Shown: positions 4,156-60,253, counted from the stretch's first letter. The stretch is DNA of 64,000 nucleotides from Lentisphaeria bacterium (GCA_017963105.1 JAGCTY010000111.1:4943-68942), one strand, 5' to 3'. Notes: generated from the sequence alone by a model not told the origin. Numbers and translations are program-made.

Positions 4156-4200
4156 CTTAGGAACAGTATTTTTCAATCCAAAGACATTTCGAGGTACAGC

Positions 4201-32576: not shown

Positions 32577-32578
32577 CC

Positions 32579-35257: not shown

Positions 35258-35270
35258 TTAGGAGTTTCTC

Positions 35271-36404
35271 ATGTCACACATTCCTTTCAACAAGCCTTAT
35301 ATCATAGGGAAAGAGCTCTGGAACATTGCACGTGCCGTTCAGCTTGGCAAGCTCGCCGGCGACGGGTATTTCACGAAACAGTGCAACCACTGGCTGGAAG
35401 AGCATTTTCACGCGCAGAAAGTCCTGCTGACGCATTCCTGCACGGCGGCGCTGGAAATGGCGGCCATCCTCTGCGACATCAAGCCCGGCGACGAGTTCAT
35501 CGTGCCGAGCTACACGTTCGTTTCCACGGTCAATGCGTTCGTCCTGCGCGGCGGCATCCCCGTCTTCATCGACATCCGCCCCGACACCATGAACATCGAC
35601 GAAAAGCTGATCGAACAGGCAATCACCCCGAAAACGAAGGTGATCGTGCCGGTCCATTATGCCGGCATCGGCTGCGACATGGACGCGATCATGGACATTG
35701 CGAAACGCCATAATCTGCTGGTCGTGGAGGACGCCGCCCAGGGCGTATGCGCCACCTACAAAGACAAGTACCTCGGGACAATCGGGCACCTCGGATGCTA
35801 CAGTTTCCATGAGACCAAGAACTTCATTTCCGGAGAAGGGGGCGCGCTCGTCATCAACGATGAACGCTTCTTCGAGCGCTCCGAGATCATCCGCGAAAAA
35901 GGCACCAACCGCAGTCAGTTCTTCCGCGGCATGGTTGACAAATACACCTGGGTCGACATCGGCTCCAGCTACCTCCCCAGCGAGATGATCGCCGCCTTCC
36001 TGTATGCTCAGCTTGAGGAGTCGGACAAGATCACGGAAAAACGCCTCGCGATCTGGAACGAATACCATCGCCGGCTCGCCCCGCTCGAAAAGGCGGGATT
36101 GGTCCGGCGCCCCGTCATTCCGGCGAATTGCGGACACAACGCCCACATGTATTATATTCTCCTGAAAGATCTGGCAACCCGCACGAAACTGATTCAGTAT
36201 CTGAAGGAACGGGATATCAATCCGGTGTTCCACTATGTCCCGCTTCACTCCGCGCCGAAGGGGATCGAGCTCTGCGGAAAGAAATATGACCTGCCGATCA
36301 CGGAGGAATATGCGGACCGGCTTCTGAGGCTGCCGTGCTATTACGAATTATCCATCGAACAGATCGACATGATTGTCAATTTCATTCAATCTTTTTTCGA
36401 ATAA
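35271..36404 (+). CDS. DegT/DnrJ/EryC1/StrS-family sugar aminotransferase, WecE-like (NDP-4-keto-6-deoxyhexose 4-aminotransferase)
   Basis: IPFNKPYIIGKEL...SCTAALEMA...VPSYTFVSTVNAF...SFHETKN (WecE-type PLP-lysine motif). Confidence 0.9.
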   Translation: MSHIPFNKPYIIGKELWNIARAVQLGKLAGDGYFTKQCNHWLEEHFHAQKVLLTHSCTAALEMAAILCDIKPGDEFIVPSYTFVSTVNAFVLRGGIPVFIDIRPDTMNIDEKLIEQAITPKTKVIVPVHYAGIGCDMDAIMDIAKRHNLLVVEDAAQGVCATYKDKYLGTIGHLGCYSFHETKNFISGEGGALVINDERFFERSEIIREKGTNRSQFFRGMVDKYTWVDIGSSYLPSEMIAAFLYAQLEESDKITEKRLAIWNEYHRRLAPLEKAGLVRRPVIPANCGHNAHMYYILLKDLATRTKLIQYLKERDINPVFHYVPLHSAPKGIELCGKKYDLPITEEYADRLLRLPCYYELSIEQIDMIVNFIQSFFE

Positions 36405-36468
36405 AACCCCACACGGAATAGACATTTTTCCCTGATTGTTTTTTCAGGTCTCTCCAGGCGGGAGCACT

Positions 36469-38516: not shown

Positions 38517-38618
38517 TATGTGCGGAATTATTGAAAATAGACATCACGCGCGACCGCCAAAACCAGGAAGAAGATACGGGTGGAACGCACAAAATCCCGG
38601 AAGGGAAAGGAGCTCGTT

Positions 38619-47600: not shown

Positions 47601-50600
47601 ATGAAGAAGGTCATCGACCTGGATACCGGCGCGGCAGCCGTCTCCGGGCTTGTCCTCGATGTGACGGGGAACTCCCATGCAAGCGATATCGGCATCCTGT
47701 ACGACTCCGTCGAGTACGACTACTGGGTCCTCGCGGCCAGCCAGACCACGGTGTACGTGAACAGCGCCTGGGCGACGGACGCGGAGACCGGCCTCGCGCA
47801 CAAGACCGGCGACAGCGTCGGCGACAAACTGTACTACGGGTTCAACGCGTTCGCCAGCTTCTCCGAGGCATACGCGGAGACCCTGAAAGCCAATCCGTAC
47901 TCCATCAAGAAAGCCGGAGCCTCTTCCGCGGACCAGCAGAAGATCGCGACGATCGTGGTCTGCGACACGCCCGAAACGGCCCAACCGGTCGAGATGACGC
48001 CTGAGAATTTCCGAAACAAAATCACCCTGGACGACCTTCAGATCGCCAAGTCGGATACCAGCGCCACCGCCATCATCCCGTTCACGAACGCCGAAGGCAG
48101 CGTCCTCACTCTCATCCCCGCGGACGATGCGGCCAAGACCATTACGGTCCAGAGCGGCGTGACCCTGCAGATGAACGGCACGGGTTCCCTGCACCTGGGC
48201 GGCGATGAAACCACGGACCCGGCTGCGACTACGACAACGGCCGGCAAAATCGTGATCAACGGCGGGATCGAATCCGAAGAGGGCTCCGTCGTGGTCTACG
48301 GACTGACCGAGGTCGTCGGCGGAACCCTGAAGGCGGCTTCTCTCACGGTCAATGCCGCCGACAAGCTCACGGTCACCGGCTTCAGCACGCTCGACATCGG
48401 CGGCACGGGCGACGGCAGTTATGCCATCCGTCTGCTGGACGGCACGACGCTGAACAACTCCAGCGTGGCGGGCGGTGCGATCAATTCCGACTATAACTTC
48501 ACGATCTCCGGCGAAAGCGCGCTGACCGGCGGCGTGGCCGTCACGGCGACGAACAATACCATTACGAACACAGGTTCGCTCACGGTGGACTGGCGTTCCC
48601 GGATCACGTCCGCGAGATTCGACAACAATACGACCGAGGCCGCCACTATCACCGTGGACGCCAGAGAATTCGACAGTTCCGCCGACAACGTCGTCAACGG
48701 CCTTGCGACCGTGATCGACGTGAACAGCAAGGACGGCAGTCTGACTCTGGGCAACAACAAGATCGCCCTTCTCAAGGAAGAAGATTCCGATGTGAGACTG
48801 GTCCAGAAGCTGAACGGCGACATCTGCGTCGGCATCATCGACCAGAGCACGCTGTATGTGAACAATGACTGGACGACCTACGCGGACGGCGAAGAGATCG
48901 TTGGCAATGAGGGCAAGTTCTACGGCATCAACGCGTTCGCGAACATCGCGGATTCCAGGCTGACCTGGTCCGGGGATTCCACCGAACAGGATGTCAAGCC
49001 CGACTGCGTCACGACCAATACGATCGTCTTCGACGGCGACACCTACACGATCGGTTCCAAGACGTATTTCTACTCCGACAACAAGGCGGAAGGCGTCCTC
49101 ATCCGCGGCGCGAACGAGGACGGCACGGCGACGAACGTCGTGCTCTCGGGCGATCGTCTCTACCTGACCCACGCGGTGACCGACTACACCGATGAAGGAC
49201 TCGCGGCGGAAGTCGGCAGCGAGGGGAACACCCCGCTCTACACGATCCATAAGGACCTTACGCTGAACGTTTCGCGCCTGAACGTCGGCAACGCGAAGGA
49301 CACGAGCGAGACGAACCGCACGGGCGGCGTTGCGAACCTGGCGATCAGCGGCACGCTGAAAGGCACCCTCTACGTCGCGCCGTATTCGACGGTGACGGTG
49401 AACAAGAGCGGCAACGTGGACGTGCTCGACGGCAAAGAAGCCTGGCTCCAGCTCCGGCCGAACGCCGTTCTGACGGTCAACGGCTCGGACGGCGAAGGCG
49501 CCAGAGGGTTCGATGATGACGAATACCAGTTCCGCCAGGATGCGCTGAACTTCATCGACGGCGGCACGGTGAACCTGAACAACACCAAAGCCCATCTCGA
49601 ATACATCCGCCTAGATTCCGTCGGAAGCGATCAGCCGCTCACCGTCCAGAACGATGTCTTCAATGTGACGGATTCGGAACTCGTCTTCGGCAATGTGAAT
49701 CTCACTGCCGCCACGCCCGGCGTCGTGTTCGGTTCGCTTGACCACTCCAACACCATGACCGTCACCCTGACGCGTTCCACGGTGACGGCCGCATCGAAGG
49801 ACTTCAATCCGCTGGCCGGCGTAACCGTGAATGTCAGGAACTCCACGATCAGCGCGGCCTCCGTGACGAACTCCGGCACGATCACGGTCGATGTCACGTC
49901 CCGCATCACGGCGGACAGCGTTTCCGGCGGCGTGATCGACATCATATCGACCGGACTCGGGACTACCCTGACGGCCGACTTCTACATCCTGGTCAAGGGT
50001 ACGCTTGACAGCACGAGTCTCCCGACCCTGATCGTCGACGGCGATATCGATGACCCGGTTACCGACGGGTCTGCAATCGGCTCGACCGGCTATCAGGTCC
50101 GTACGCTCGGCAACACGGGCGTGTTCCTGACCAAGGTGAAAGATCCCGTGGAAATGTTCGTGGACAGCTCGTATACCGGCAGCCTCGGAGACGAGACCGA
50201 AGACCATCATCTGATCGGGTTCGACGCGTTCACGGACAACCCCGACACCACGGACGACACGACCCTGTCCTTCACGAGCGACGCGGCGACGGCGATCACC
50301 TACGCCGCGGGCGATTATTCCGCGCTGGACCTCGGCGGCCTGAGCGTCGCCCCGACCGATCTCACGATCTCGACGTCCGGCGACGTCACCATGGGTCCGC
50401 TGACCGTCGGAAACGGCAGCACGGTCGATCAGGCCGTCACGTTCTCCGGCGCGAATGTGGCGCTGGAGGATGCGGGGACCGAGCCTGACACAACCGCCTC
50501 CATCACGGTGTCCGACGGCAGCACGCTGAACATCGGCGGGCCGGATCCCGCCGCCGCCGGCAACGCTGCCGCGGTCACGGCCGAAACGGTCAACAATGCC

Positions 50601-53600
50601 GGCACGATCGTGGTCGCATCCGATTCCTCGTTCGAAACCGACGATGTGACGAACACCGGTTCGATCACAGTGAACAATACGATGACGAGCGGCACGATCA
50701 CGAATACCGACGGCACGATCACGGTCGACGGCACGCTCGAAGCCGCCAGTATTTCGGGCGGCGCGGTTTCGGTCTCGAACAGCCTGGACGTCAGCGGAGA
50801 AATCTCCGGCGTTTCGCTCACGGTGACCGCACCCGGCGCGACGGATCCCGACGATGTCGCGGTGAAGGCCGGAACCATCAACGGCGGTTCGATCAAACTG
50901 ACGGTCACCACTTCCACCCTTACCGAGACTTCGTACCAGTTCGTCGATGCCACGCTTGGAACCGGGACGGACGCGGTTTCGTTCACGGTGAACGGCACAC
51001 CCATCACGCAGGAATTCCAGGACGTCGGGAACGGCTATCTGTTCACGACAAAAGGCAACACCGGCGCATGGCTGGTGCAGGCGCAGTCCCGGGCGGCCCT
51101 GTATGTGAACTCGACGTATACCGCGGATGGCTACAATGAAGGCCACATCTACGGCTACAACGCGTTCTCTTCGTTCGTGGATGCGCTGACCGTGGCATCC
51201 GACCTGACGATCAACAATGCGAGTTTCGCCGACGGCATCACGATCGAAGTCGAAAACAATATCACGCATGATGTGATCCCCGCCGGGGAAGGATCCCTGA
51301 ATCTCGTGTTCCAGGGTGTTATCACGGTCAATGGCTCGGGCAAGACCGTGACCGTTTACGGCGACCGCTATCTCAGGCTGGGCGCGGCAACGGATACGAC
51401 ATCCTTTGTCTTCAATCCCGATTTCGTATTCAATTACGAACAGATCGGGGACGTGAACACGGGCAAATACGGTCTTCTTCTCGGGACGAGCCCGGCGAAC
51501 TCCCTCGGCTCCGTCACGATGAACGGCACGTTCACGAGCGGAAACCGCTTCCAGGCCATTACCGACTCCCTCGAGCTGAATAAGGCCGTAACGGCTGACA
51601 CGTACGTCTATCTGGGCTCCACGGATATGGTGATTGCTGCTCCCGTCGAATCCCAGACCATTACGTTCGTCGGCTACGCCATTGTGAACAGCGACGCGAC
51701 GCTGACGACCCCGGATGACGGCAATATCCTTATCTACGATCCCGCTGCAGATGTGTTGATCCGAGGCACCGGCAACAGCCTGTATGAGACCATCCCCCAG
51801 GTAAAGACCGGATCACTGGTCCTCACGGATGGGGCGCTTGTGACAGAGGATACGCGGATCAAACTGAAGTCCAATCTTACGTTCTGCGACGACTACGACC
51901 GGTTCACGGAAGATGGAGTCGATTACACCGGACAGGTCACTCTGACCGCTGATAACACCTTCTGGGACATTGGAGGAGACATCAATGTCAGATTCTTCAC
52001 GGATCCGAGCCACATTGATGACGATGTATCCGCCACGCTGAGCTTTGCGCAAAGCATCGTGGAAGTCGGCGGAAACGTGATCAACGCTGCGTACAGCACG
52101 ACGACGGGACAGGATTCGGCTGCGTATCTCGGCACCGCCCCTGCGATGACGATCGAGCTGGTCGACTCCTCTATGTTTGTCGACGGCGACCTGATGAACG
52201 ACGGCGAGATCACGCTGACAAAAGACAGTTCGTCTTTCAACGCCATCAGCGTCGCCGGAAATGTACTGAACCGTGAAGGTGCGACCATTTCCGTTGCTGC
52301 TTCGTCTTTCGATGTCAACGGCGAGACCAGTGTTCTCACGAACAACGGCACGTTCAACGTTTCCGGCAGGTCCACGCTGACCATCAACGAGCTCGGCGGC
52401 AGCAACCCCATAGAGCTTCTGAACGACGCGGCAATCGTGGATTCCGCCATCGCCAGCGGCGGCAAGCTGAACGTGGCATCAGGAAGCGTTGATTTCGCCA
52501 ATTCGACCATGTCGTCCACCGCGCTCGACAACGCCGGTTCGATCAAGTTCTACAATACGGTGACTGTCGGCGCGATCGACAACAAGACCGCGGCCGCATC
52601 CATCACGGTTAACGGTACGCTGAACTCTGGCGCAATCACCAATTCCGGCGTGACCGACAGCGACGGCGGCATCACGGTGAATGGCAAGCTGTCTGCCACC
52701 GGGGACATCGACAACGCCGGCACGATCACGGTCTACGGCACACTGACCGGCGGCTCGATCAACAATGGCGGCACGATCGAACTCGGTACGGTCGGCGACA
52801 GGAAAGCTGCTCTTACCGTGACCGGCGCGATCGACAACACGTCCGGCACGATCAACATCAACAATGTGGCGCTGCTCGGCGAGGCGACGTCCGTCATCAG
52901 GGCGGCCAGCATCAACAACGCGTCCGGCACGATCACGATCGATGCGACGGGCTTTGGCGGCGGCACACGGAAAGTGATCGACGTCAACAGCAGCACGGAA
53001 CTTGACGTGAACGACATCACGTTGAATCACGCGGGCACGGGCGTCCGCCTGGTCCAGGCGGATGACGGGGATGTCTTCATCACGGATGAAACCCAGTCGA
53101 CCCTGTTCGTGAACAGCACCTATTCCGGCCAGGTGACGGACGACGGCCATCTGATGGGATGGAACGCGTTCAGCAGCTTCATCGAGGCTCTCACGGTCGC
53201 AAAAGGCAGATCCGACGATACGACGATTACTGTTCTCTCCGACATTACGGACAGTTCCGATGTCCAGTATCTGTTCGGATCAGGTCGCTTCCCCGGCAAT
53301 GTCACGATCGATGGCGTACTGGTCGTCGATGAGGATAATCCGAGCGGAAGGAAGCCCATCGTCACGCTTGGCGGGTCTTTGCTGGAATTCGATCCGACCC
53401 CGGCTGACAACAAAACATTTACCTTCTCCGCCGGCAGCTCCGACACGGTTGGCGTAGATTTCCGGATGACGAACGGCTCGTTCTGGCCGAATGAACATCC
53501 TGAAACCGATGATCTGGCCGAATATGTGATCTCCAGCGACATCTCCGCTCCTGACATCGTGTTCAAAAAAGGCTCAACGAGCGTGACTGCGACCGGGACG

Positions 53601-55781
53601 CTGACGGCGACCGGAGTGCCGGAGACTTCGGACCTCGGCAATATCACTTTCTACAAGACAGGTCTGGACTTCTCCATCGATGGCGAGGACGGCGGTTTCT
53701 CTGTTTCCGATCCGCAGGTCAATGCCGGAGGAAGCATCATCTTCCGTCAGGGAGACGTCGATTTCAACAACACCTTCGTTTCTGCAAAGTATCTTGCCGT
53801 TACCGATGACAATGCCGGTGATTCTTTTGCCGGCAGCGTGAATCTGACTTCCGACAAAACCACCTGGACGATTTCCGATGATGTGTTCGTCAGATTCTAC
53901 ACTCCCTTTACTGCGGCCAAGTTCGGTGAAGGCGGCTATGCCGCAAACTTCACTTTCACCAACCACAGCAGCCTGAACGTCGGCGGAAATCTGATCAACA
54001 TCGCATACACGACCAATGATGGAACAACCAGCATCGATGTATTTGCCGGGGCTCCGGCTATGACGATCGACCTGGTCAACTCCACCATGACCGTCGGGAC
54101 GTACAGCGAAGGGAATCTTGTCCGCGGCGGCGCGATCGAAAACGCCGGCACGATCAAGATGGACAAGGATTCGCTGATCACGGCAGGCAGCATCACGAAC
54201 AGCGGCGCGGGCACGATCACGATCGACGCGACGGGATTCTCCGGCATGAAGAAAGTCATCGACCTGGAAAGCGGAACGGTCGCGGCCTCGCTCATCAACG
54301 CCCCGTCCGGCGTGACGCTGTACTACAATAAGGCGGAACACGATTACTGGCTCACGGACGCCGTGAACAGCATCATCTACCTGAACGGCACAAGCGCCTG
54401 GAACAACAAGCAATACGGCGATGCGCTCGGCACCTATGGGACCACGAACGAATACTTCGGCTACAATGCGACCAACTCGTCCGAAGCCGCAAGAAACATC
54501 GCGGCCGCCGCGGGCACCACGATCGAGGTGACCGGCGGGGAATTCACCGCTGCAAATTCGCCGGCGTTCAACGGCGTCACGACGACCATCAAAGACGGAA
54601 CCTTCAAGACCAACGTCTGCGGCGGGAAGAATTACTCCACCGGAGACGGCGTGGTCCGTCTTGAAGTCGAAGAAGGCGAAGAAAAGCCCACGCTTTCGCT
54701 GACCATCGACGGCGGGAAGTTCGAAAAGATCGTCTTCGGCGGAGACCGCGTGAACACCGCAAAGGATGTGACCAGGGTCGCCGACATCGAGATGACCATC
54801 TCCGGCGGAAAGTTCTATCATTCCGTGGCCGGCGCCATGGCGCTCACCAATGCATCGGGATTCGCCAAACTGGAAGGCAATGTCACCCTGAATATCTACG
54901 GCGGGGAGTTCAACGACAATGCCGCGGGCCAGAACGTAGACTGGCTCTACGGCGGATGCATCGCGAGCACCAAATCCGTCGGACAGAGCACCAGCATCAC
55001 GGGAAATGTCACGGTCAGGATCAACACCTCGGAAAAGAACGATCACATCGAGATCGCGAATCTGGTCGTCGGGTCGTACGGATACGGAGAAGTCGGAGGC
55101 GACACCAAACTTCTCCTGACCGGAACGGAAAAGAATGTTACCGCAACCGGCGAGATCTGGGGCGGATGCAGCAGCGACAAATACGAAGGATATATCTCCG
55201 ACAGCCACAACCGCAACCTGACCACGACCGTCAGGCACAAAGTGTCCGAGCCGGGAGAAGAGCCTGTGTATGAATACGGAAAACGCATCCTCTCCTTCAC
55301 CGGGTTCACGGGGACGCTCACATCCCAGGAGAACAAGATTCTGGCGTTCAGCGACGTCGTGGTCGAGCAGAACAGCCAGGCGACGGTGGCAAACTTCGAG
55401 GGCGGCAAAGTCAGCCTTTCCGACGTGGTGACCTGGACCTTCGAAAACGGCAGCACGCTGACCGGAAATTTCAGCAACGACTTCTGGGGCGACACGCTGA
55501 ACCTGAAGGGATTCACCTCGGCGGTAACGGACCTCGAGCTGATGTTCGATGCCAACAGCACCGATTCGATCGATGTCTTCAGATACTTCGACAAGCTGGC
55601 GGACGTCCAGATGAACGGCAATTCCGTGTCAGCCACGTTCAGCCAGGACGTCGAGGCACAGACGATGACATGGGCATGGAATGCCGGCTCGACCACCGGC
55701 GACACGCCGGAATCCTGGCTCGGCGGTTCGCTTACGGTCAACAAGGGGACCGGAATCATGTCGGTCACGACGATCGCGTAA
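38619..55781 (+). CDS. Giant leaderless beta-helix repeat protein (5720 aa), a concatemer of about 9 homologous super-modules
   Basis: ATG 38619 with AAGGAG 7 nt upstream, in frame in track ORF 38580..55781 and uninterrupted. Ser/Thr/Gly/Asn-rich beta-helix-like repeats. Recurring module headers and tails (see findings). No N-terminal hydrophobic signal. Confidence 0.85.
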   Translation: MADIFVNPSWNSGADPITVYVSGNNVSKTNPGDGTSASCYKTLEAAFSAASDGDTIYVYNKSSSSFALIPANTSQADTGVYKLSSGETYSYTGDSRKNLVVRMNRYEVEADKNYAILVSGNITMDFRVYNSIKLGRGKDGQHTSLTVENGAVFLLRKISPYTAQWNSITTIDQFVVNGATACFVGSQVKNEGDNKNTCDATFTVTNSLFFASGFFNNYSHNSGDKADALTVSGSNMTVGYLANAANGTSITIGSASTVYSGQVINTGEKSLISVSGNSKMFAGKVENQGTTAGKGISVTSGSEFTVAAETWDNTGEGSGSGYVLDMVGLQAGAARTIQVYVLKNGDSESNKKTYELTLAADQTTAKLRASYLVTGATYSVWTSEDSDRVSYLSRVFGDGSVSNAGRITVDSSTFNAGSLTNSSSVSVASFTDSTVQVSGTVSNSGKTANSGGMTIEDSMFEAGTWADVVFTGSSVSNSGTITVTATAADKLASFRAGAVTNSGTLTVSSTEDSTSVSTFNATSLTNSSTVSVASFTNSTVQVSGTVSNSGKTANSGGMTIEDSMFEVGTWADDVFTGSAVSNSGTLSVSGSELRAGAMTNSGSMTVDNSTFNEVSLNNSSSVSYAAFTDSVVSFSGSVSNSGKAANNGGMTIEDTLFEAGTWSDVVFTGSSVSNSGTLTVSDSVLRAGAVTNSGSMTVDGSMFNAASFNNSVAASSAALTDSTVQISGTLSNSGALNLTDVSAVVGEPGNNAQCFTNAASSTFRLTSTSAHDSTLAVNGALKNNGTLTISSSPLTIAVASGAARTVSILIKDSSNNTVYSNNAFSVAANVDSISISSSYFTPGATYSVSIDGGDPVLYTMASTTASLSVTGKVTNSNTSSTRAVITVDAWSTFSADSFTNSNGRFNIVYNPDNAGALSINSFDNASGIISIDVTKYLANRETDPVVTVDGIRISASNKLGTVRLVDSSGSTVNGLTYYLNSDNQIVIAPTTLFVNAKWTDDDSTLSKPYTITLTTPDPDDSSKTVSVKYERYKAGDITAGDPPYYAWKYGSDIVYTTEEPENGTYDTTGTIPAVYEKVDSSFVVIDNVSKMVVVLDTSASFNGRSYKLERGVNAFANVQEAIEHAMPGATIVFYNIGDTKDVEDFKFYKQGLVTVDKNLIFESNVKDKAVKLDTLKIDEACEATFKTGLYSMEDALDNAGTLDIVSGTRFNADLVKNSGKGVILVGTAARLVAASIDSGTVEIRTGYEDVDLNWLEWPMSAKIGDNTTLKFVYPVTEYSPAEQEGVAYEYRLIDGIRKLAVVETVRPGGRIYMQKLGDDQYVCRGSMEHASVAAGDCDSFLLNTEYGGLLLVRDVFNLSDADLNGTYSTAAIYVNNTWAGNLPSDTFTAKSQDITSKLTFSFTSANHSARMVKALIYDNNNNIVEEHFVSVGDSDTGEYAGVVALCTNLSADKTYTVKVIDGDAAPISATGVGVTAIANHEVSISTDYDGNQIVYGSFLDAMSSAYIFGHTIGTADEGMVIRLQDSSADQSGTTYIEGVFKGGSYTGPESNVSTSAIPKIPNGKSFYNLVVEPDRYWDETAGQWRYDNVSLILGGSFGQQYTSNLITFQRLKYLEINQFVIGSTASRMSAIDFVDIEDLRITTKLKPQGGATIRILNCNVTSDQHFSVTGGTLIIENSNVKLVGATGNGALSTENNWVGSGTVVIRNSVFTLISSSTGANPVVVNLKINSEFAISGTCTVNGIFTNVDEADGSDTFITFRDAILDENSSIRGDENHDNVGASLRFEGYNILDGTTVEQYGNKSMTVEAGSTVDMSDGALITVGGEVEVSNCGNITLDNASISAGSFTNEGNLTLSNGSEVQLTGEFTNAKNGTLTAGLHSDGTLGITGSINNEGTVYIDLSHTDLPDGEDLYINLAGLSGSGEVVVIGGGGSYEPEETGGSAHPPRIRLSVPPTKTLYVSREWQDAGVYRKGTNVGSFTYFGYNAYADNPGSARGLVFSRETAKIVYYGGNGEDAFCDLDLSAAENAANQLTITTVGSMASTKMAIEFASALVVARDADNDRNISVVVKEGTKVVETKSLFIAKQNGNNGTTATFTDIDFYSANLSADGEYTVTVVDGNTTLYELESSEWSVTGLAADRDTASMGALTVGESQTVTLFGATMSLHDRTAAPATASITNNGTLKVGTGEDAVLEIPVAPSDAMRNVSVKIQIGANEEYHTVQAAKGATSITVESNSISPGQQYTVSVTDTKQISASHDAGTGHTVLKVGILKGNGNHESTRSINVTAQNAAGAKYTFTNVQVAGDATEVELDPLVALDNTSGTVTGTVAEQFSVSVDGNGNFILTAKGEHAEQRVSAYVQKTVGDTVYRFDYTFDVAAGSAAGEVGRVSTRLTTEGYYYVKSEEPAVTVTATVTDSCISGSVVKAESVTNDGKLIVASQEDFGSLSLTGIQSAEARTVQVTVKDGTYTVGTYDVKVGGNSTTASVISTDFFAGKNYTAKVTDTYYTAGSVSGSDTAPQLKFALGDVTAPSVLVQVADSASGDLVGTYTATRITEAGDDYGKYTIVSGEFAAETRYTISYYNTVKSQETLVARTECVSSASGVSAPRLAFAVEAGAERTITAVVKDGSGNIVGTFDVIVHDSAETCYLVSSEFTDTAADAYTVSIAGENTYDLTGSFTAAAEDSRKAAKLVLDVDVNTEASRWIEVTTKPTLALMTGLNPGQYGYTITTDSGTVAGTCIVDSEGKTIIKSDALTAGTEYTATFDDAGSTTKTAAAVDKYSIFVEKGAPTAELTSEDFMVGMDYSDVTIKDAYTATGEAAAGTLTLKGLTSSDKVIRPDGVLQRTVTVTVMDGAFKVGTYTIEDSAIIGGKAVISDSKFTADTDYTLLVEDTRTVVVTAETLTEFDAGAVTNNDTITVIDATFHAASLTNNGTISLTNALLTVGTTDGSGNFIGGTITNSAGKTITLDMNSLITAGSIANSGTITIDARLFDPSTTDMKKVIDLDTGAAAVSGLVLDVTGNSHASDIGILYDSVEYDYWVLAASQTTVYVNSAWATDAETGLAHKTGDSVGDKLYYGFNAFASFSEAYAETLKANPYSIKKAGASSADQQKIATIVVCDTPETAQPVEMTPENFRNKITLDDLQIAKSDTSATAIIPFTNAEGSVLTLIPADDAAKTITVQSGVTLQMNGTGSLHLGGDETTDPAATTTTAGKIVINGGIESEEGSVVVYGLTEVVGGTLKAASLTVNAADKLTVTGFSTLDIGGTGDGSYAIRLLDGTTLNNSSVAGGAINSDYNFTISGESALTGGVAVTATNNTITNTGSLTVDWRSRITSARFDNNTTEAATITVDAREFDSSADNVVNGLATVIDVNSKDGSLTLGNNKIALLKEEDSDVRLVQKLNGDICVGIIDQSTLYVNNDWTTYADGEEIVGNEGKFYGINAFANIADSRLTWSGDSTEQDVKPDCVTTNTIVFDGDTYTIGSKTYFYSDNKAEGVLIRGANEDGTATNVVLSGDRLYLTHAVTDYTDEGLAAEVGSEGNTPLYTIHKDLTLNVSRLNVGNAKDTSETNRTGGVANLAISGTLKGTLYVAPYSTVTVNKSGNVDVLDGKEAWLQLRPNAVLTVNGSDGEGARGFDDDEYQFRQDALNFIDGGTVNLNNTKAHLEYIRLDSVGSDQPLTVQNDVFNVTDSELVFGNVNLTAATPGVVFGSLDHSNTMTVTLTRSTVTAASKDFNPLAGVTVNVRNSTISAASVTNSGTITVDVTSRITADSVSGGVIDIISTGLGTTLTADFYILVKGTLDSTSLPTLIVDGDIDDPVTDGSAIGSTGYQVRTLGNTGVFLTKVKDPVEMFVDSSYTGSLGDETEDHHLIGFDAFTDNPDTTDDTTLSFTSDAATAITYAAGDYSALDLGGLSVAPTDLTISTSGDVTMGPLTVGNGSTVDQAVTFSGANVALEDAGTEPDTTASITVSDGSTLNIGGPDPAAAGNAAAVTAETVNNAGTIVVASDSSFETDDVTNTGSITVNNTMTSGTITNTDGTITVDGTLEAASISGGAVSVSNSLDVSGEISGVSLTVTAPGATDPDDVAVKAGTINGGSIKLTVTTSTLTETSYQFVDATLGTGTDAVSFTVNGTPITQEFQDVGNGYLFTTKGNTGAWLVQAQSRAALYVNSTYTADGYNEGHIYGYNAFSSFVDALTVASDLTINNASFADGITIEVENNITHDVIPAGEGSLNLVFQGVITVNGSGKTVTVYGDRYLRLGAATDTTSFVFNPDFVFNYEQIGDVNTGKYGLLLGTSPANSLGSVTMNGTFTSGNRFQAITDSLELNKAVTADTYVYLGSTDMVIAAPVESQTITFVGYAIVNSDATLTTPDDGNILIYDPAADVLIRGTGNSLYETIPQVKTGSLVLTDGALVTEDTRIKLKSNLTFCDDYDRFTEDGVDYTGQVTLTADNTFWDIGGDINVRFFTDPSHIDDDVSATLSFAQSIVEVGGNVINAAYSTTTGQDSAAYLGTAPAMTIELVDSSMFVDGDLMNDGEITLTKDSSSFNAISVAGNVLNREGATISVAASSFDVNGETSVLTNNGTFNVSGRSTLTINELGGSNPIELLNDAAIVDSAIASGGKLNVASGSVDFANSTMSSTALDNAGSIKFYNTVTVGAIDNKTAAASITVNGTLNSGAITNSGVTDSDGGITVNGKLSATGDIDNAGTITVYGTLTGGSINNGGTIELGTVGDRKAALTVTGAIDNTSGTININNVALLGEATSVIRAASINNASGTITIDATGFGGGTRKVIDVNSSTELDVNDITLNHAGTGVRLVQADDGDVFITDETQSTLFVNSTYSGQVTDDGHLMGWNAFSSFIEALTVAKGRSDDTTITVLSDITDSSDVQYLFGSGRFPGNVTIDGVLVVDEDNPSGRKPIVTLGGSLLEFDPTPADNKTFTFSAGSSDTVGVDFRMTNGSFWPNEHPETDDLAEYVISSDISAPDIVFKKGSTSVTATGTLTATGVPETSDLGNITFYKTGLDFSIDGEDGGFSVSDPQVNAGGSIIFRQGDVDFNNTFVSAKYLAVTDDNAGDSFAGSVNLTSDKTTWTISDDVFVRFYTPFTAAKFGEGGYAANFTFTNHSSLNVGGNLINIAYTTNDGTTSIDVFAGAPAMTIDLVNSTMTVGTYSEGNLVRGGAIENAGTIKMDKDSLITAGSITNSGAGTITIDATGFSGMKKVIDLESGTVAASLINAPSGVTLYYNKAEHDYWLTDAVNSIIYLNGTSAWNNKQYGDALGTYGTTNEYFGYNATNSSEAARNIAAAAGTTIEVTGGEFTAANSPAFNGVTTTIKDGTFKTNVCGGKNYSTGDGVVRLEVEEGEEKPTLSLTIDGGKFEKIVFGGDRVNTAKDVTRVADIEMTISGGKFYHSVAGAMALTNASGFAKLEGNVTLNIYGGEFNDNAAGQNVDWLYGGCIASTKSVGQSTSITGNVTVRINTSEKNDHIEIANLVVGSYGYGEVGGDTKLLLTGTEKNVTATGEIWGGCSSDKYEGYISDSHNRNLTTTVRHKVSEPGEEPVYEYGKRILSFTGFTGTLTSQENKILAFSDVVVEQNSQATVANFEGGKVSLSDVVTWTFENGSTLTGNFSNDFWGDTLNLKGFTSAVTDLELMFDANSTDSIDVFRYFDKLADVQMNGNSVSATFSQDVEAQTMTWAWNAGSTTGDTPESWLGGSLTVNKGTGIMSVTTIA
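39838..40860. repeat. Intragenic near-identical tandem repeats (315/276/276-bp units, about 3.5 copies)
   Basis: (a/c)(c/t)gttcaacg at about 39855, 40170, 40446 and 40722. Encodes STFNA(G/T)SLTNSS.VSVASFT.STVQVSGTVSNSGKTANSGGMTIEDSMFE.GTWAD units. Confidence 0.8.
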
Positions 55782-55813
55782 TCAAACACCTAACATTTCA
55801 AGGATAACGGAAT

Positions 55814-55960
55814 ATGACTCTGAAGAAAACGAAAGACCGCGAGGCCTATGAAGCACCTGTCATAACGGACATCGCCCCCGTTGCCGTAACGACGGGAGCG
55901 GGGGATTCCCAAACTCCCAGTGATGGAGGAGATATCAGCGAAACCGGAGGTTTCGACTGA
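55814..55960 (+). CDS. Unannotated 48-codon ORF; candidate RiPP (lasso-type) precursor peptide
   Basis: Hand-translated: MTLKKTKDREAYEAPVITDIAPVAVTTGAGDSQTPSDGGDISETGGFD. AAGGA lies 9 nt upstream of the ATG. The ORF is 33 nt after the giant-gene stop, on the same strand as a downstream PqqD-type gene. Confidence 0.45.
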   Translation: MTLKKTKDREAYEAPVITDIAPVAVTTGAGDSQTPSDGGDISETGGFD

Positions 55961-56058
55961 TGTGACGATTCCCGGCGCGGGACCTTCGCACCACAGGGCC
56001 GCGCCAGCCGTCTCATCGATCGAAAAAACATCCTGCTCTCTGCGATAGGAGAAAAAAA

Positions 56059-58476
56059 ATGGCGACCTCAACCTGCACTGTTTCATCCGGCGTTACGTCC
56101 AGCAACCTTGCCATGGGCGAGAATGAGCTCATGTATATGTATATCCTGGGCGAGGGCGTCGCGCTTTCATGCACGGCAATAAACGGCGGTCAAATCCATG
56201 CGTCGGCCGGAGGTGTGGCCAAGGAAACGATCGTTTTCAACTCCGGCTGGCTGATGCTGTCCGGCGGCAACGGGCTTTCCACGACGCTGAGCAGCGGCGG
56301 CAGCGAAACGATCGCGAACGACGGCAGGGAAACGAGCGCTTCCGTCCTGGACGGCGGCGTCATGTACGTCAACCGCGGCGTTTGCGACGGGGCGAAGGTC
56401 TATCTCGGCGGCCTGGTTCAGGCGACCGGCATCGTCAACGCCGCTACGGTATCCAGCGGCGGACGCGTCGAAATAAAGTCCGGCGGGAAAGCCCAGGAAT
56501 GCGTGGTGGCGGACGGCGGGACGCTCCTGATCCTGAGCAGCGGAATCGCCCAGAGCAACACCGTTCGCGGGGGCGGCCTGATGAGGGCGATGGAGAATAC
56601 AAGGCTCCTCTTCACGACTGTCGGCAAGACCGGGGCCGGGACCGCCCGTCTGCAGATCAGCGGCGGCTCCTCGTTCTACACCTCGGTCTATGCCGGGGGC
56701 GCCGTATCGTTCGAAAACAACGAAGCGCTCAGAAGCACGACGGTCATCAGCGGAGGCATCATCCAGGGAGGCGACCTGCTCCTGTCGAGCAATTCCGCCG
56801 ACGAAGACGCGGGCCGGTGCACGGTCAGGTTCGAGAACGGCGGCACGGCCACGCTCTCGAACCTCACGATCAGGACCGGCGGCCTGATGCAGGTGGATTC
56901 CCGGACCACGGTGCATTTCCGGAACATTACCCTCGACGGCAATCAGAGCGGGTTCAAGATGACCGGAATGGCGACCTACGATCCGGCGTCCGGGACCTGC
57001 CGGAAGCTGCTGGACTGCACCGCGGAGACGACGGAGCTCTGGACGGACGCCCAGTACCGGACGCTTCTGAACACGACGGATGCAATCTACGACCATGCGT
57101 TTCTCTATAAGGACGGGGACCTGTATCTGCGCGGGATCGCGCATGTCTCCTCCGAAGGAACCGGTGAGGAGGCGTTTGCCACGGTTCAGGCCGCATTGGA
57201 GATGGACCCGACCGGGCTTGTCATCGAGGCCGGAACCTACGATCTGACGGACAACATCCCCGTGTTCGAGGGCGTCACGACGACCATCAACGACGGATTG
57301 TTTACGACCAGTGTCTGCGGCGGCAGCTACTACCGCGCGCCCGCGGCGCCTCCGGAATCCATGGAGTTCGACAACATCGGCGGGTCCGGAAACGAACAGA
57401 ACATTTCCCTCACGATCAACGGCGGAACCTTCAACAAGATCGTGTTCGCCGGGGATCGCGTGAACCGGGACCTTCTGACTCTGACCCGGACCGGCAACAT
57501 CAGCACGACGATCAACGGCGGCGTCTTCAGCCATTCCGTGTCCGGCGCGATGGCCGTCACGGTCGACGCGCTCACCGTCCTGAACAAGCTCGTCGGCAAT
57601 GTCACCCTGACGATCAGGGGCGGGACCTTCAACGATTCGTGGGATTCGACGAAAGAGAAATGGAAAAATGTCGACTGGATCTACGGCGGAAGCATCGCGC
57701 TGACCAAAACGATCGGGGGGACGACCACCATCGACGGCAGCGTGACCGTGACGCTTGACGCGACGAACAACGCCATAACGGTCGCGAACCTGGTCGCAGG
57801 TTCGTACGGATACGGCACGATCACGGGAAACACGAACCTGGTGCTGACCGGAACAAACGGCATTACCGCCACAGGCGAAATCTGGGGCGGCTGCAGCGGC
57901 GACGTCCTGCAATTCACAAAGATCAAGAAAAGCGACAACACCGACAGCGGCAACCGCGCATTGACGACGAAGGTCTCCGGAAAGCGCAAACTCACGTTCT
58001 CCGGATTCAACGGCACGCTCATGTCCGGAGAGAACAAGATCCGGGCGTTCAGCGACCTTGAGTTCAAGGGGAACAGCGATGCGACGGTGGCCAACAGCGG
58101 GACCGGCAGCGTCATTTTCTCCGACATCGTGAACTGGACCTTCGAGAAAGGCAGCAAGCTGACCGGCAATTTCGTCAACGACTTCAACGGCGACACGCTG
58201 AACCTCCTGAAATTCGATACGGCCGGGACTTTCGAGCTGCTGACCGACTCCAGCCTGTCCTCGAACGACATCTTCAACGCCTTCGATCAGCTGTCGGCCA
58301 TCAAGATGGATGGGAATGCCGTGTCGGCCACGTTCACCCAGAACGTCGAGGCGCAGACGATGACGTGGGCCTGGGAGGCCGGTTCGACCCCCGGCGACAC
58401 GCCGGAATCCTGGCTCGGCGGTTCGCTCGAAGTCAACCGGACGACAGGAAAAATGACCCTCACGACGATCGCATGA
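56059..58476 (+). CDS. Leaderless beta-helix protein (805 aa): SGG/AIDA-like N-half plus a C-terminal ~430-aa module shared with the giant protein
   Basis: AGGAG lies 8 nt upstream. Starts MATSTCTVSSG. The C-terminus ...VEAQTMTWAWEAGSTPGDTPESWLGGSLEVNRTTGKMTLTTIA parallels the giant protein C-terminus. Confidence 0.8.
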   Translation: MATSTCTVSSGVTSSNLAMGENELMYMYILGEGVALSCTAINGGQIHASAGGVAKETIVFNSGWLMLSGGNGLSTTLSSGGSETIANDGRETSASVLDGGVMYVNRGVCDGAKVYLGGLVQATGIVNAATVSSGGRVEIKSGGKAQECVVADGGTLLILSSGIAQSNTVRGGGLMRAMENTRLLFTTVGKTGAGTARLQISGGSSFYTSVYAGGAVSFENNEALRSTTVISGGIIQGGDLLLSSNSADEDAGRCTVRFENGGTATLSNLTIRTGGLMQVDSRTTVHFRNITLDGNQSGFKMTGMATYDPASGTCRKLLDCTAETTELWTDAQYRTLLNTTDAIYDHAFLYKDGDLYLRGIAHVSSEGTGEEAFATVQAALEMDPTGLVIEAGTYDLTDNIPVFEGVTTTINDGLFTTSVCGGSYYRAPAAPPESMEFDNIGGSGNEQNISLTINGGTFNKIVFAGDRVNRDLLTLTRTGNISTTINGGVFSHSVSGAMAVTVDALTVLNKLVGNVTLTIRGGTFNDSWDSTKEKWKNVDWIYGGSIALTKTIGGTTTIDGSVTVTLDATNNAITVANLVAGSYGYGTITGNTNLVLTGTNGITATGEIWGGCSGDVLQFTKIKKSDNTDSGNRALTTKVSGKRKLTFSGFNGTLMSGENKIRAFSDLEFKGNSDATVANSGTGSVIFSDIVNWTFEKGSKLTGNFVNDFNGDTLNLLKFDTAGTFELLTDSSLSSNDIFNAFDQLSAIKMDGNAVSATFTQNVEAQTMTWAWEAGSTPGDTPESWLGGSLEVNRTTGKMTLTTIA

Positions 58477-58514
58477 GCCAGGATGCTTCTGTTTTCGGGT
58501 GCTTCTGATTTGTT

Positions 58515-59408
58515 ATGAACGGGAAAGAACGGCACACGGCCAGACGGCTGGCAATCGACCTGCACGACGGTGGAAACATCGTGATCCGGGCGGACGGCCC
58601 GGAGGAGGTGATCCCCTTCGACAGCTTCGGCGCGCTGCTGCGTCTGCCACCGGAAGAGACGGACGAAGGGTTCGCCGACGCGGAACTGCTGGCGCCGGAC
58701 CGGATGCCGGAAGACCGGCACACTCTGGATACGACGGCGCGCACGGAGATCGCATATGCGGCAGACTGGAGCCGGGTGCTGATCGCGGGATGGAAGGAAC
58801 CGCCTCGCCGCCCGCATCATTACTGCTGCTATGTGTGGCAGACGGCCCTGGTCTACGCGGGGATGAACGCCATCCTGCGCGGGGAAAACGCCGTGCTGGC
58901 GCATTGCGCTGCGCTGGAAACGCCCTGCGGCGTGCTTCTGATCTTCGGCGAAAGCGGAATGGGGAAAAGCACGGCCTCGGCACGGTGGCGCGCACACGGC
59001 GGGAAATGCGTCTCGGACGACATGGCGCTGCTGGATTTCAGCGGCTCCGACGGCGTGATCCGCGTCCGCCGGATGCCGACCTGGAGCGCCTGCCGCGAAG
59101 GGAAAAACGAATGGAACTATCCCGCGGGCAAAGAACTCCCGCTGGCCGGGGTCTTGGCGCTGGGACGCAGCGAAAACGGTCGCGACGAGATCGTCGATCT
59201 GAGCCAGGCGCAGTTTTTCGCCCAGTGCTACCGGTCGATGTTCTACTGGAACCTGTTCTATGCCAAGGGTCTGCCGGAAGGAAAAAAGCGGATTCTGACG
59301 GACCGCATCCGGACGCAGGCGGAGACCATAGCGGAACGGTTCGCGCCGCGGGCGCTTCTGACCGTGCTCGAAGGCGATCTTGTAACCTTTCTTGAGGACA
59401 AACTATGA
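58515..59408 (+). CDS. HPr-kinase/phosphorylase C-terminal-domain-like P-loop protein
   Basis: LAHCAALETPCGVLLIFGESGMGKSTASARWRAHGGKCVSDDMALL matches the HprK pattern (G.SG.GKS ... DD). Confidence 0.72.
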   Translation: MNGKERHTARRLAIDLHDGGNIVIRADGPEEVIPFDSFGALLRLPPEETDEGFADAELLAPDRMPEDRHTLDTTARTEIAYAADWSRVLIAGWKEPPRRPHHYCCYVWQTALVYAGMNAILRGENAVLAHCAALETPCGVLLIFGESGMGKSTASARWRAHGGKCVSDDMALLDFSGSDGVIRVRRMPTWSACREGKNEWNYPAGKELPLAGVLALGRSENGRDEIVDLSQAQFFAQCYRSMFYWNLFYAKGLPEGKKRILTDRIRTQAETIAERFAPRALLTVLEGDLVTFLEDKL

Positions 59409-59665
59409 AACTGAATCCATTTGCCGTAATGGCGGAACAATTCGACGGGACGGGCCTGGTGTTCAACCCGGAATCGAACGCGGCGGTCTCACTGAACAAG
59501 ACCGGGGTGTATCTGTGGAACCGGCTGAAAGACGGCGCGACCGAGGCGGAAATGGCGGCGGGCCTGCTGAAAACGTACGACGGAGTGACGGAAGAAAAGG
59601 CCGCCGCGGACGTGAAGGCGTTCATCGAAGAACTGCGAAGCCGTTCCCTGCTGTCGGAGGACTGA
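59405..59665 (+). CDS. PqqD-family protein (RiPP recognition element-type)
   Basis: 86 aa; VFNPESNAAVSLNKTGVYLWNRLKDGATEAEMAAGLLKTYDGVTEEKAAADVKAFIEELRSRSLL. ATGA overlap with the preceding gene. Confidence 0.8.
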   Translation: MKLNPFAVMAEQFDGTGLVFNPESNAAVSLNKTGVYLWNRLKDGATEAEMAAGLLKTYDGVTEEKAAADVKAFIEELRSRSLLSED

Positions 59666-59671
59666 TCCGCC

Positions 59672-60253
59672 ATGGCCGGGCCGGAATTACCGCGCGAGGC
59701 CCGTTACAAGGGCGACAGCATGCGGGGGGTATTCGTCCCCGGGGAAACGCTTTTCCTCGCCGAAACGGCCTTTGAAACGCTTCGGAAAGGCGATGTGGTC
59801 GTGAACTTCGACAGCGATCCGTATTATGTCCACCGGATCGTCGAAAGAAACTCCGACTGCGCCGTCACGATGGGCGACAACAATGACCGACCGGACTCCA
59901 TGAAACTGACGCCGTCCGTCCGGTTCCGGCTCGTGGTCCGTGCTCAGGCCCTGGACGGAACCGTGCGGCAGGTGGCCGCCGGCGAGGCCGGAATGGAGCA
60001 GTTCCGCCGCCATCAGCGCAAACGCCGTCTGCGGAGGTTCGCCGCCCTGCTGATCCGCCCGTTCCGGCCGCTGAAAATCCTGCGGATCCCGGCAAAGACC
60101 GAAACAAGATTCCGCGACGGCACGGTCCAGTGGAGCTGTGCGGGGATCCCCGTGGCCGCCCGCAATCCGTCAGGCAGGACCATGTATCTGCACTGGTCGA
60201 AGCGCCTCTTTTTCCGGATCCCGGCACAAAAAGACAATCCGGGCTCCGAATAG
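59672..60253 (+). CDS. S26B (SipW/Sec11-type) signal-peptidase-I homologue lacking a membrane anchor
   Basis: GDSMRGVF (Ser box, residue 16), YYVHRIV (His box), MGDNNDRPDS (GDNN box). No hydrophobic TM segment anywhere in the 193 aa. Confidence 0.72.
   Translation: MAGPELPREARYKGDSMRGVFVPGETLFLAETAFETLRKGDVVVNFDSDPYYVHRIVERNSDCAVTMGDNNDRPDSMKLTPSVRFRLVVRAQALDGTVRQVAAGEAGMEQFRRHQRKRRLRRFAALLIRPFRPLKILRIPAKTETRFRDGTVQWSCAGIPVAARNPSGRTMYLHWSKRLFFRIPAQKDNPGSE

Follow-up and report, generated by a model that had tools for sequence, protein, structure and literature searches.

Linear polyphosphorylated peptides (LPPs) are the products of the closest described system, the lppA-K-B-S-D-N pathway of Paenibacillus alginolyticus (Popov et al., Nat Commun 2026;17:6633, PMC13381572). 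In this pathway, which was tested experimentally as the construct lppA-K-B-S-D-N, the place of the lasso protease is taken by a signal-peptidase-like enzyme, and the product stays free of a ring; LppS cuts the leader only in the presence of the RiPP recognition element (RRE) LppB, and the kinase LppK polyphosphorylates Ser3, with Thr not being accepted (PMC13381572). Mutation of LppS S29/H68/D93 abolishes cleavage, LppB residues N33, D70, and F74 hold the leader Tyr and Pro, and LppS docks on LppB/LppA through its N-terminal helix (PMC13381572). The leader consensus is YxxPxVLxHQxIxFETxxS, the cut falls after T(-1), Ser3 is the acceptor, and the defining domains are TIGR02228, PqqD, NTP_transf_5, an HprK-like protein, and MsbA (PMC13381572). 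LPPs are said to be restricted to Bacillota, and the supplements list no Lentisphaeria (PMC13381572).

Phosphorylated lasso peptides (paeninodin, BsfA, and pseudomycoidin) resemble the genes described below in several respects: a YxxPxL-type leader bound by a discrete B1/RRE protein; an HprK-like kinase that acts on the linear precursor, accelerated by the RRE, at Ser3 in the case of BsfA; and an optional NTP_transf_5 transferase and ABC exporter. HprK-fold kinases phosphorylate precursors in the paeninodin, Bsf, and LPP systems, and the acceptor Ser3 lies at Y+18 in LppA and at Y+19 in BsfA.

The cassette and its genes

We analyzed a 64-kb stretch of a Lentisphaeria bacterium genome (hereafter the window). 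A preliminary description, made from the sequence alone, had reported a small ORF, an HprK-like gene, a PqqD gene, and an S26-like gene, and the ORF coordinates confirm all four. The features considered here are:

36436..38208, plus strand: D, MsbA-like ABC exporter of 591 aa, a putative export pump (ABC_membrane and ABC_tran in Pfam; NCBIfam MsbA_rel/MsbA, ~1e-64)
38580..55781, plus strand: giant beta-helix protein of 5733 aa without a signal peptide; context, possibly functionally linked
55814..55960, plus strand: A, precursor peptide of 48 aa, with a leader of roughly residues 1-27/29 and an acidic core
56059..58476, plus strand: beta-helix protein of 805 aa, between A and K
58515..59408, plus strand: K, HprK-like P-loop kinase (ScmC family), predicted to phosphorylate a Ser of the precursor
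59405..59665, plus strand: B, discrete PqqD-type RRE (PF05402, 8.7e-17)
59672..60253, plus strand: S, soluble SipW/Sec11-type (S26B) serine peptidase, the predicted RRE-dependent leader peptidase

K and B overlap by ATGA and B and S are 6 nt apart, which indicates translational coupling; no plus-strand terminator was found between A and S. In Lentisphaeria the gene order is A-K-(GT2)-B-S-(N)-(D), where N is an NTP_transf_5 (PF14907) transferase that follows S in many related loci. Among the longer loci, nearly all carry B and S as a pair.

These genes probably form the Lentisphaeria counterpart of the LPP pathway, a cassette that makes a linear, (poly)phosphorylated ribosomal peptide. This reading draws on gene content and order, the alignment of the catalytic triad, the leader-binding residues known from LppB, the leader and its Ser spacing, natural fusions, gene coupling, and the lack of a cyclase or B2 protease. 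What the Lentisphaeria loci themselves show is which genes are present, how these are ordered and conserved, which catalytic and leader-binding residues they keep, and that no cyclase or B2 is detectable; every chemical step and the cleavage site are carried over by analogy from the Bacillota system. By that analogy, the Y-x-x-P-x-h motif in the leader of the 48-aa precursor would be bound by the discrete PqqD protein, and the HprK-like kinase would phosphorylate a Ser at a fixed distance from that motif, namely S32 of G30-D31-S32, ~20 residues past the Tyr. S, through its predicted Ser-His-Asp triad (S16/H54/D75), would then remove the leader between T27 and G30 in an RRE-dependent manner, and the MsbA-like ABC pump (36436-38208) would export a short acidic phosphopeptide with no macrolactam ring formed.

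The exporter had been overlooked in the preliminary description. It is 70-84% identical to ABC exporters that adjoin K-B-S in L011, L016, L017, L050, L053, L056, L070, and L078, and on this sequence relationship we assign it to the precursor/K/B/S system. Relatives have one to three GT2 glycosyltransferases in addition to the NTP_transf_5 transferase, so that their products are probably phosphoglycosylated.

The precursor peptide

The 48-codon ORF is a real gene, far beyond chance. This is based on homologues in at least 20 Lentisphaeria loci, including the syntenic L118, on aligned leader codons whose pairwise differences at codon positions 1/2/3 are 0.375/0.256/0.62, on a GAAAGGA-type ribosome binding site in about half of the precursor loci (window included), and on its NCBI annotation as hypothetical protein MBP5586249.1. 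The AAGGA reported ahead of the ORF is indeed present, 10-14 nt 5' of the ATG.

In the window the leader motif reads Y12-E-A-P15-V-I17-T-D-I20-A-P-V. Across 20 homologues the conserved pattern is Y-E-x-P-x-h-x-D/E-I-x-P-V, also written YExPxhxDIxPV[TS]h..., and the invariant residues are Y, P, and I only. The C-termini are hypervariable and acidic with a G-x-S motif, and the cores span 15-30 aa and are strongly acidic. A near-invariant Gly and usually a Ser occupy Y+19 to Y+22, with the Ser at ~Y+20, though in a small number of homologues this place is taken by Thr or holds no Ser. The acidic core of the window precursor carries G30-D-S32, of which S32 is the predicted phospho-acceptor.

A precursor is not always found: several K-B-S loci have none within 10 kb. 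In L117, a contig of the same species, the precursor and most of the giant gene are missing, reflecting either assembly collapse or a real deletion.

The recognition element and the predicted leader peptidase

B is 22% identical to LppB (E=2e-8). The leader-binding residues N33/D70/F74 of LppB correspond to N31/D69/F73 in B and are kept in 70-73 of 73 Lentisphaeria PqqD homologues.

S matches TIGR02228, the archaeal-type signal peptidase I (2e-8), and its profile matches human SEC11A/C (E=2e-4). Its motifs, GxSM...VHR...GDNNxxxD, are those of SipW/Sec11/archaeal type I signal peptidases (MEROPS S26B), with which it shares the catalytic core fold. The initial assignments of PqqD, HprK-like, and S26-type families were thus borne out by the PF05402, ScmC/HprK_rel_A, and TIGR02228 matches. 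Residues S16, H54, D69, and D75 are invariant in 24 S homologues, and S16/H54/D75 align with LppS S29/H68/D93. Overall similarity to LppS is remote (28% over 76 aa, E=0.003; hhalign E=3.9e-4 with a probability of only 36%).

As had been proposed, S has no membrane anchor: no hydrophobic segment was found in it (maximum KD(19) 0.92), and the AF2 model (pLDDT 89) is a soluble two-domain protein with an extra C-terminal domain of ~90 residues (helix + beta). S differs from S26B signal peptidases in these two features, in its constant pairing, and occasional fusion, with a PqqD protein, and in its predicted substrate, a cytoplasmic RiPP leader rather than a Sec signal peptide. Natural fusions include PqqD-S26 (P0155, P0166, P0170, and P0232) and S26-NTP_transf_5 (P0139). 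An S26-type serine peptidase with PqqD, paired or fused, looks like a general modular leader-removal device. The suggestion that a cytoplasmic S26-type peptidase stands in the place of B2 agrees with the role of LppS (Popov et al. 2026, PMC13381572).

Comparison with the Bacillota LPP pathway

The Lentisphaeria cassettes and the LPP pathway share the same functional set in nearly the same order: a small YxxP precursor with a variable C-terminus and a Ser close to the predicted cleavage site, an HprK-like kinase, a discrete PqqD RRE, a non-membrane SipW/archaeal-type signal peptidase I homologue with a Ser/His/Asp triad beside that RRE, an MsbA-like exporter, no cyclase, and glycosyltransferase-rich cell-surface loci. 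Among the LPP-defining domains, TIGR02228, PqqD, HprK-like, and MsbA are all matched in Lentisphaeria; NTP_transf_5 is encoded in many of the relatives, whereas none was found in the window using tblastn with two homologues and Pfam scans. The preliminary description had offered either a split lasso pathway or a distinct leader-dependent maturation cassette; the second is supported by the experiments on the homologous Paenibacillus set (Popov et al. 2026), and the first is not supported.

There are also differences. The phylum is Lentisphaerota, not Bacillota, and sequence similarity is remote (22-28%). Of the LPP leader consensus, only YxxPxh and P-V at +10/+11 recur, HQ and FET being absent, and the Ser lies at Y+20 rather than at Y+18 as in LppA. 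Lentisphaeria cores are short and acidic, whereas the two Bacillota cores compared are Gly/Asn/Pro/Lys-rich, and in Lentisphaeria a giant beta-helix adhesin gene always precedes that of the precursor. LppS docks by an N-terminal helix that the Lentisphaeria peptidase does not have; the latter carries the C-terminal helix + beta domain, and Lentisphaeria PqqD proteins do not keep E11/K31, contact residues of LppB; judging from these sequences, its docking on the RRE must differ from that of LppS.

Giant beta-helix proteins beside the precursor

The precursor gene starts 32 nt past the stop codon of the 5733-aa giant gene. A large beta-helix-type ORF ends just 5' of the precursor in all 17 loci with upstream sequence, mostly at a distance of 23-43 nt, and most giant proteins that precede precursors share a C-terminal tail like ...M.L.(L/I)A. 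The 805-aa protein, which over its last ~400 aa is 55% identical to the C-terminal end of the giant one, also occurs in syntenic L118, but most other loci have no such gene between A and K.

An alternative is that the small peptide serves the giant adhesins and is no free natural product: it could be a phosphorylated, acidic partner or chaperone that is made and exported along with them, or K, B, and S could have the giant proteins as further substrates. All precursor genes found lie directly 3' of a giant beta-helix gene, in L050 and L053 the precursor comes after the giant gene and not after the kinase, K-B-S loci with no giant gene next to them also have no precursor, and RTX/AIDA-type giant genes flank most cassettes. 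Even so, we regard this as quite unlikely. No YxxP leader was found at the N-termini of the giant proteins, the Bacillota system works on the small peptide alone (PMC13381572), and PqqD-S26 pairs are also found where no giant gene is present (L006-L009, and L109 with a Cys-rich precursor). Co-location may only mean a shared cell-surface theme, for which the capsule loci in Bacilli offer a parallel (PMC13381572).

Within the LPP-type reading, the same linkage invites a more specific suggestion, which we make tentatively and consider unlikely: the Lentisphaeria peptide could be a dedicated partner of the giant adhesins, with the exported acidic phospho(glyco)peptide acting on or with them, for example in Ca2+ handling, folding control, or anchoring. 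It stems from the precursor always being the last small cistron of the giant gene and sometimes being kept with that gene and not with the kinase. If true, this would be the first functional clue for LPPs, and the strict linkage suggests where to seek the function of LPP-type peptides.

Is K a peptide kinase?

K carries GESGMGKST...SDD, and its homologues are labeled PF27840 ScmC. Its best family match is ScmC (TIGR04249, 5.9e-13) and not the lasso-associated HprK_rel_A (1.7e-4), all below the family cut-offs, and ScmC has no established role in SynChlorMet-type cassettes. Moreover, the match of the K family profile to the HPr kinase structure 1jb1 (E=1.9e-4) spans only ~50 residues around the P-loop. 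One could thus suppose that K is not a peptide kinase and that the peptide is otherwise modified, or left unmodified, before cleavage and export. We judge this very unlikely, since the HPr-kinase signature H...GxSGxGKS...DD (H130, G145xSGxGKS/T, and D168-D169) is invariant in 14 homologues, the Ser at a fixed spacing from the RRE-binding motif is conserved, and kinases of the same fold act on precursors in the paeninodin, Bsf, and LPP systems; radical SAM partners were also absent from the scanned window ORFs.

Lasso, SynChlorMet, and signal peptidase readings

The preliminary description called the ORF a lasso-type precursor, and the residues that it named (Y12, P15, I17, T27, G28, and, for a core from A29, the Asp at position 9) are as given there. 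The split-lasso explanation would have a true lasso precursor cut after G28 to form an Ala1-Asp9 ring, with the cyclase and B2 elsewhere in the genome and K, B, and S as accessories. The window peptide does fit Y(-17)xxP(-14)xI(-12)...T(-2) with A1...D9, and it matches lasso_leader_L3 below threshold (E=0.031, 14.3 bits against a cut-off of 19). In Bacillota, ~1/3 of SpI genes have lasso genes as neighbors, and lasso clusters are found in more than half of the LPP hosts.

Conservation tells against it, however. The proposed YxxPxI...T motif survives only in part: Y, P, and I are kept, but Thr at Y+15, the would-be -2, occurs only in the window peptide among the 20 homologues. Likewise, most of them do not have a small residue at core position 1 and an acidic one at 7-9 in any fixed register, and the lasso-leader model NF033521 is matched by one of the 20 peptides, below its cut-off. 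The claim that no cyclase or B2 is visible was upheld, with no match to Asn_synthase (PF00733), Transglut_core3 (PF13471), or radical SAM models in ~45 plausible genes and selected leftover ORFs of the window. Across 978 kb of 117 related loci, the SGGxDS motif appears only in two small non-cyclase proteins (253 and 372 aa) and in no large cyclase-like protein. Phosphorylated lasso systems differ further in that the leader peptidase here is a serine S26-type enzyme and the cores conserve no ring-forming Asp/Glu. A dedicated peptidase also lies next to the RRE in every locus. The unconserved register, the single leader match, and the missing cyclase-like protein in the loci scanned speak against a lasso-type precursor, and we consider a split lasso pathway very unlikely.

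SynChlorMet cassettes, by their TIGRFAM description, contain two radical SAM/SPASM enzymes. ScmC and ScmD (TIGR04249/TIGR04248) are the best NCBIfam matches of K and B, but membership is rejected because the scores lie far under the family cut-offs (K 49 vs 125 bits; B 50 vs 100 bits) and the scanned window ORFs, unlike SynChlorMet, include no radical SAM protein. A membrane-anchored Sec signal peptidase is likewise dismissed, as S has no hydrophobic segment, a soluble AF2 model, and PqqD as an obligate genomic partner.

Distribution and implications

The cassette occurs in rumen and gut Lentisphaeria/Victivallales of the phylum Lentisphaerota (27 species-level genomes and 80 metagenome loci). 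On the LPP-type reading, a RiPP class that was reported from Bacillota in May 2026 also occurs in a Gram-negative lineage of the PVC group that is common in the rumen and gut, and the Lentisphaeria cassettes contradict the stated Bacillota restriction of LPPs. Docking between their peptidase and RRE would offer a second, independent solution to compare with LppS. As a side observation, a Cys-rich precursor accompanies the S26-PqqD pair in a soil contig.

Gene Content and Order of the Cassette

All the ORFs of the preliminary description were found, together with the AAGGA, the ATGA overlap, and the 6-nt gap that it had noted, and its reading of three of them as an HprK-like P-loop protein, a PqqD recognition protein (RRE), and a soluble S26-type peptidase is borne out by the profile and residue comparisons given for each below. 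The features, in order along the window, are:

36436-38208, + strand: D, MsbA-like ABC exporter, with 70-84% identity to D genes next to K-B-S in related loci
38580-55781, + strand: giant beta-helix gene, 17 kb, no signal peptide
55814-55960, + strand: A, 48-codon precursor ORF, MTLKKTKDREAYEAPVITDIAPVAVTTGAGDSQTPSDGGDISETGGFD, AAGGA 5' of the start
56059-58476, + strand: 805-aa beta-helix ORF, between A and K
58515-59408, + strand: K, HprK-like P-loop ORF with ScmC/HprK-related matches
59405-59665, + strand: B, PqqD ORF, ATGA overlap with K, Pfam match at 8.7e-17
59672-60253, + strand: S, S26-like ORF, starting 6 nt after B, TIGR02228 match at 2e-8

NCBI annotates the four cassette proteins as MBP5586249/51/52/53, the small one as a "hypothetical protein," and the host is a rumen or gut Lentisphaeria MAG. 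These gene-level features are read directly. In related loci the full order is A-K-(0-3 GT2 glycosyltransferases)-B-S-N-D, where N is an NTP_transf_5 transferase (PF14907). The window has D-[giant]-A-[805]-K-B-S, with the giant gene and the 805-aa gene set among the cassette genes and with N missing. Promoter and terminator scans and folding of the spacer between A and the 805-aa gene gave nothing over background (z=-0.9). As had been proposed, neither a cyclase nor a B2 protease is visible: Pfam scans of about 33 codon-bias-supported window genes and selected leftover ORFs returned no match to an Asn-synthetase-like cyclase, a transglutaminase-like B2, or a radical SAM protein.

The Precursor Family

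The S peptidase family served as a probe and brought in 27 species-level genome loci (almost all of them from Lentisphaeria/Victivallales), 80 metagenome loci, and several long contigs, which were then searched in all six frames with a motif scan and a leader hidden Markov model (HMM). Homologues of A were found in at least 20 loci, including a syntenic relative that encodes MDQTKQKEREAYEPPVVMDIAPVAVATVAGESETPGDDSPDF, and the YxxPxI leader, whose conservation had been put forward as a check on the small ORF, is kept in the form K/E-x-Y-E-x-P-x-h-x-D/E-I-x-P-V-[T/S]-h. The remainder of the peptide is hypervariable and rich in Asp, Glu, Gly, Ser, and Pro, with a near-invariant Gly that is usually followed two residues on by Ser, at Y+19 to Y+22 (the G-x-S motif). 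A GGD motif is also frequent. Pairwise differences among the aligned leader codons are 0.375, 0.256, and 0.62 at codon positions 1, 2, and 3, respectively, and a GAAAGGA-type ribosome binding site precedes about half of these ORFs, the window A among them. The 48-codon ORF is a gene.

Comparison with Linear Polyphosphorylated Peptides

The preliminary description had left a choice between a split lasso pathway and a distinct leader-dependent cassette in which an S26 peptidase stands in for B2. The latter was right, and such a system has been shown experimentally in another phylum (PMC13381572). The linear polyphosphorylated peptides (LPPs) were defined in Bacillota from SipW-like "SpI" peptidases beside discrete RREs (Popov et al., Nat Commun 2026, PMC13381572), with a conserved set of SpI (TIGR02228), PqqD, HprK-like kinase, NTP_transf_5, and MsbA-like pump. 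In the lppA-K-B-S-D-N cluster of P. alginolyticus, LppK places several phosphates on core Ser3, and LppS (catalytic S29/H68/D93) cuts the leader only if the RRE LppB presents it; the pathway is without a cyclase and the product therefore remains linear (PMC13381572). LPPs were called Bacillota-restricted, and the supplements of that paper contain no Lentisphaeria (PMC13381572). Our literature search on ScmC/SynChlorMet, PF14907, and Lentisphaerae RiPPs found nothing relevant.

Window A and LppA share Tyr, Pro at +3, a hydrophobic residue at +5, and Pro-Val at +10/+11, and the window exporter is MsbA-like, as in the Bacillota set. B is a solid PqqD match that shares 22% identity with LppB (E=2e-8). 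The residues that hold the leader Tyr and Pro in the LppB crystal structure, N33, D70, and F74 (PMC13381572), are kept in 70-73 of the 73 distinct Lentisphaeria PqqD sequences. LppB E11 and K31, the partners of the LppS alpha1 helix, are replaced by Ala/Ser.

S matches TIGR02228, which models archaeal-type signal peptidase I, and the profile of S also matches human SEC11A/C; S16, H54, D69, and D75 are invariant among 24 homologues, and no hydrophobic segment is present in S. The catalytic cores of S and LppS align, with S16/H54/D75 on S29/H68/D93, at 28% identity over 76 aa (hhalign E=3.9e-4, probability 36%). Since S begins only about 12 residues ahead of the catalytic Ser, it is without the alpha1 helix by which LppS contacts LppB and LppA, and carries a conserved C-terminal extension of about 90 residues instead. 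In a confident AlphaFold model (pLDDT 89), a long helix, basic in character, leads from an S24/S26-fold N-terminal domain to a small beta domain; in a fold search of this model the N-terminal domain alone found matches (LexA, Sec11, SipA), and the C-terminal domain had none in the PDB. Independent support for the coupling comes from natural fusions among the 216 clusters (E<=1e-10) of an exhaustive profile search: four PqqD-S26 proteins (P0155, P0166, P0170, and P0232; 277-350 aa) and one S26-NTP_transf_5 protein (P0139; 576 aa). A further natural fusion, P0251 (635 aa), joins an S26-like domain to a Wzy_C O-antigen-ligase membrane domain, and in P0178 (2540 aa) the small C-terminal beta domain occurs 25 times.

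By analogy with the Bacillota work and with the Bsf and paeninodin kinases, from which we infer the chemistry, the cassette probably follows an LPP-type mechanism. The leader of A would bind B, K would phosphorylate S32, S would cut between T27 and G30, and D would export the product. Cleavage would fall after A29, leaving G-D-S..., if "Ser3" is the guide, or after T27 if A is aligned directly with LppA. The cassette differs from the Bacillota systems in its Lentisphaeria host, in the architecture of S, in a leader without the HQxIxFET part of the LPP consensus and with the Ser two residues farther from Tyr, in short, strongly acidic cores, in the missing N of the window, and in the position of each A gene directly 3' of a giant beta-helix gene. 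What remains of interest is the occurrence in another phylum, the different build of the peptidase, and the link to adhesins.

Alternative Interpretations

Each A gene follows immediately on a giant beta-helix gene (loci including L001, L004, L012-L015, L038, and L071-L081), in most cases starting 23-43 nt past its stop, and in two loci (L050 and L053) with the order N-D-K-B-S-[giant]-A the precursor remains beside the giant gene. A-like precursors were sought at L011, L016, and L017, three K-B-S loci that have no giant gene, and none was found. One might thus see A as an adhesin-linked accessory and not a free RiPP; we consider this unlikely, and it concerns biological role more than chemistry.

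K has sub-threshold matches to ScmC (5.9e-13) and HprK-related kinases. When 14 homologues are combined into a profile, it matches HPr kinase/phosphorylase structures (E=1.9e-4) over the H...GxSGxGKS...DD signature. This signature is kept in all of the homologues, and a non-kinase role is highly improbable. The SynChlorMet cassette was also considered and rejected: it gives the best NCBIfam matches, but these are far under the cut-off, and no radical SAM protein was found among the scanned ORFs of the window.

The lasso-type register of the preliminary description, Y(-17)xxP(-14)xI(-12)...T(-2) with Ala1...Asp9, fits window A alone and fails for the family. Twenty peptides were anchored on Tyr with core starts from Y+14 to Y+18, and the register was rejected because no start conserves a small residue 1 and Asp/Glu at 7-9; at the would-be -2 position the homologues carry T, K, A, C, R, C, Y, C, E, G.... 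The lasso-leader model NF033521 matches one of the 20, window A itself, below the cut-off. A six-frame SGGxDS search of 978 kb (117 loci) returned only two small non-cyclase proteins (253 and 372 aa). Judged from sequence, the window cassette is not a lasso system, and a split lasso pathway is scarcely credible.

Giant Proteins and Other Loci

The signal-peptide-less giant beta-helix proteins (window 38580-55781, 56059-58476, and related loci) have in common a C-terminal domain of about 400 aa, and most end in ...[T/K]M.[L/V].[L/I/T][L/I]A-COOH, a tail with a possible role as a tag for secretion or sorting. The 805-aa protein has repeats that match TIGR04415, a strand-loop-strand repeat model; the short name of this model hints at targets of O-heptosylation. 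Further giant proteins of AIDA/FG-GAP type are found at 2-1687 and 7083-10946, and a GT2 at 11427-12440 (- strand) is 44-48% identical to cassette-linked GT2s.

Directly 5' of the exporter lies a low-GC island (31392-36401; 46-49% vs about 60%) encoding an ATP-grasp enzyme, NAD epimerase, GT2, EamA transporter, and DegT aminotransferase; it is a possible source of a sugar or amino-sugar modification. The island is also present in L117, a contig of the same species (99.4% identity). In L117 (7478-8673 vs window 38764-58506) a 635-nt repeat piece connects the start of the giant gene to a point just 5' of K, without the rest of the giant gene, A, or the 805-aa gene; this join reflects either a deletion in the strain or repeats that collapsed during assembly.

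In a soil metagenome locus outside Lentisphaeria (Ga0187785; L109, 61-1664), a 73-aa Cys-rich precursor, MKYIKPEVVDIDVDAAGGAACNYGW..., is flanked by a PqqD gene and by the gene of an S26-like peptidase with 43% identity and the C-terminal architecture of S, so that the PqqD/S26 leader-removal module seems to act there on a core of another, non-acidic type. A distant Lentisphaeria locus (L024, 7168-16217), with no recognisable precursor, has K-B-D-S followed by an 866-aa ABC transporter, an HlyD-like protein, and a 496-aa protein, all three judged by eye; the transporter has an N-terminal extension and, with the HlyD-like protein, resembles a type I secretion pair. Locus L078 carries two PqqD-S26 pairs (4167-5201 and 7519-8630) with an RTX/AIDA adhesin gene between them.
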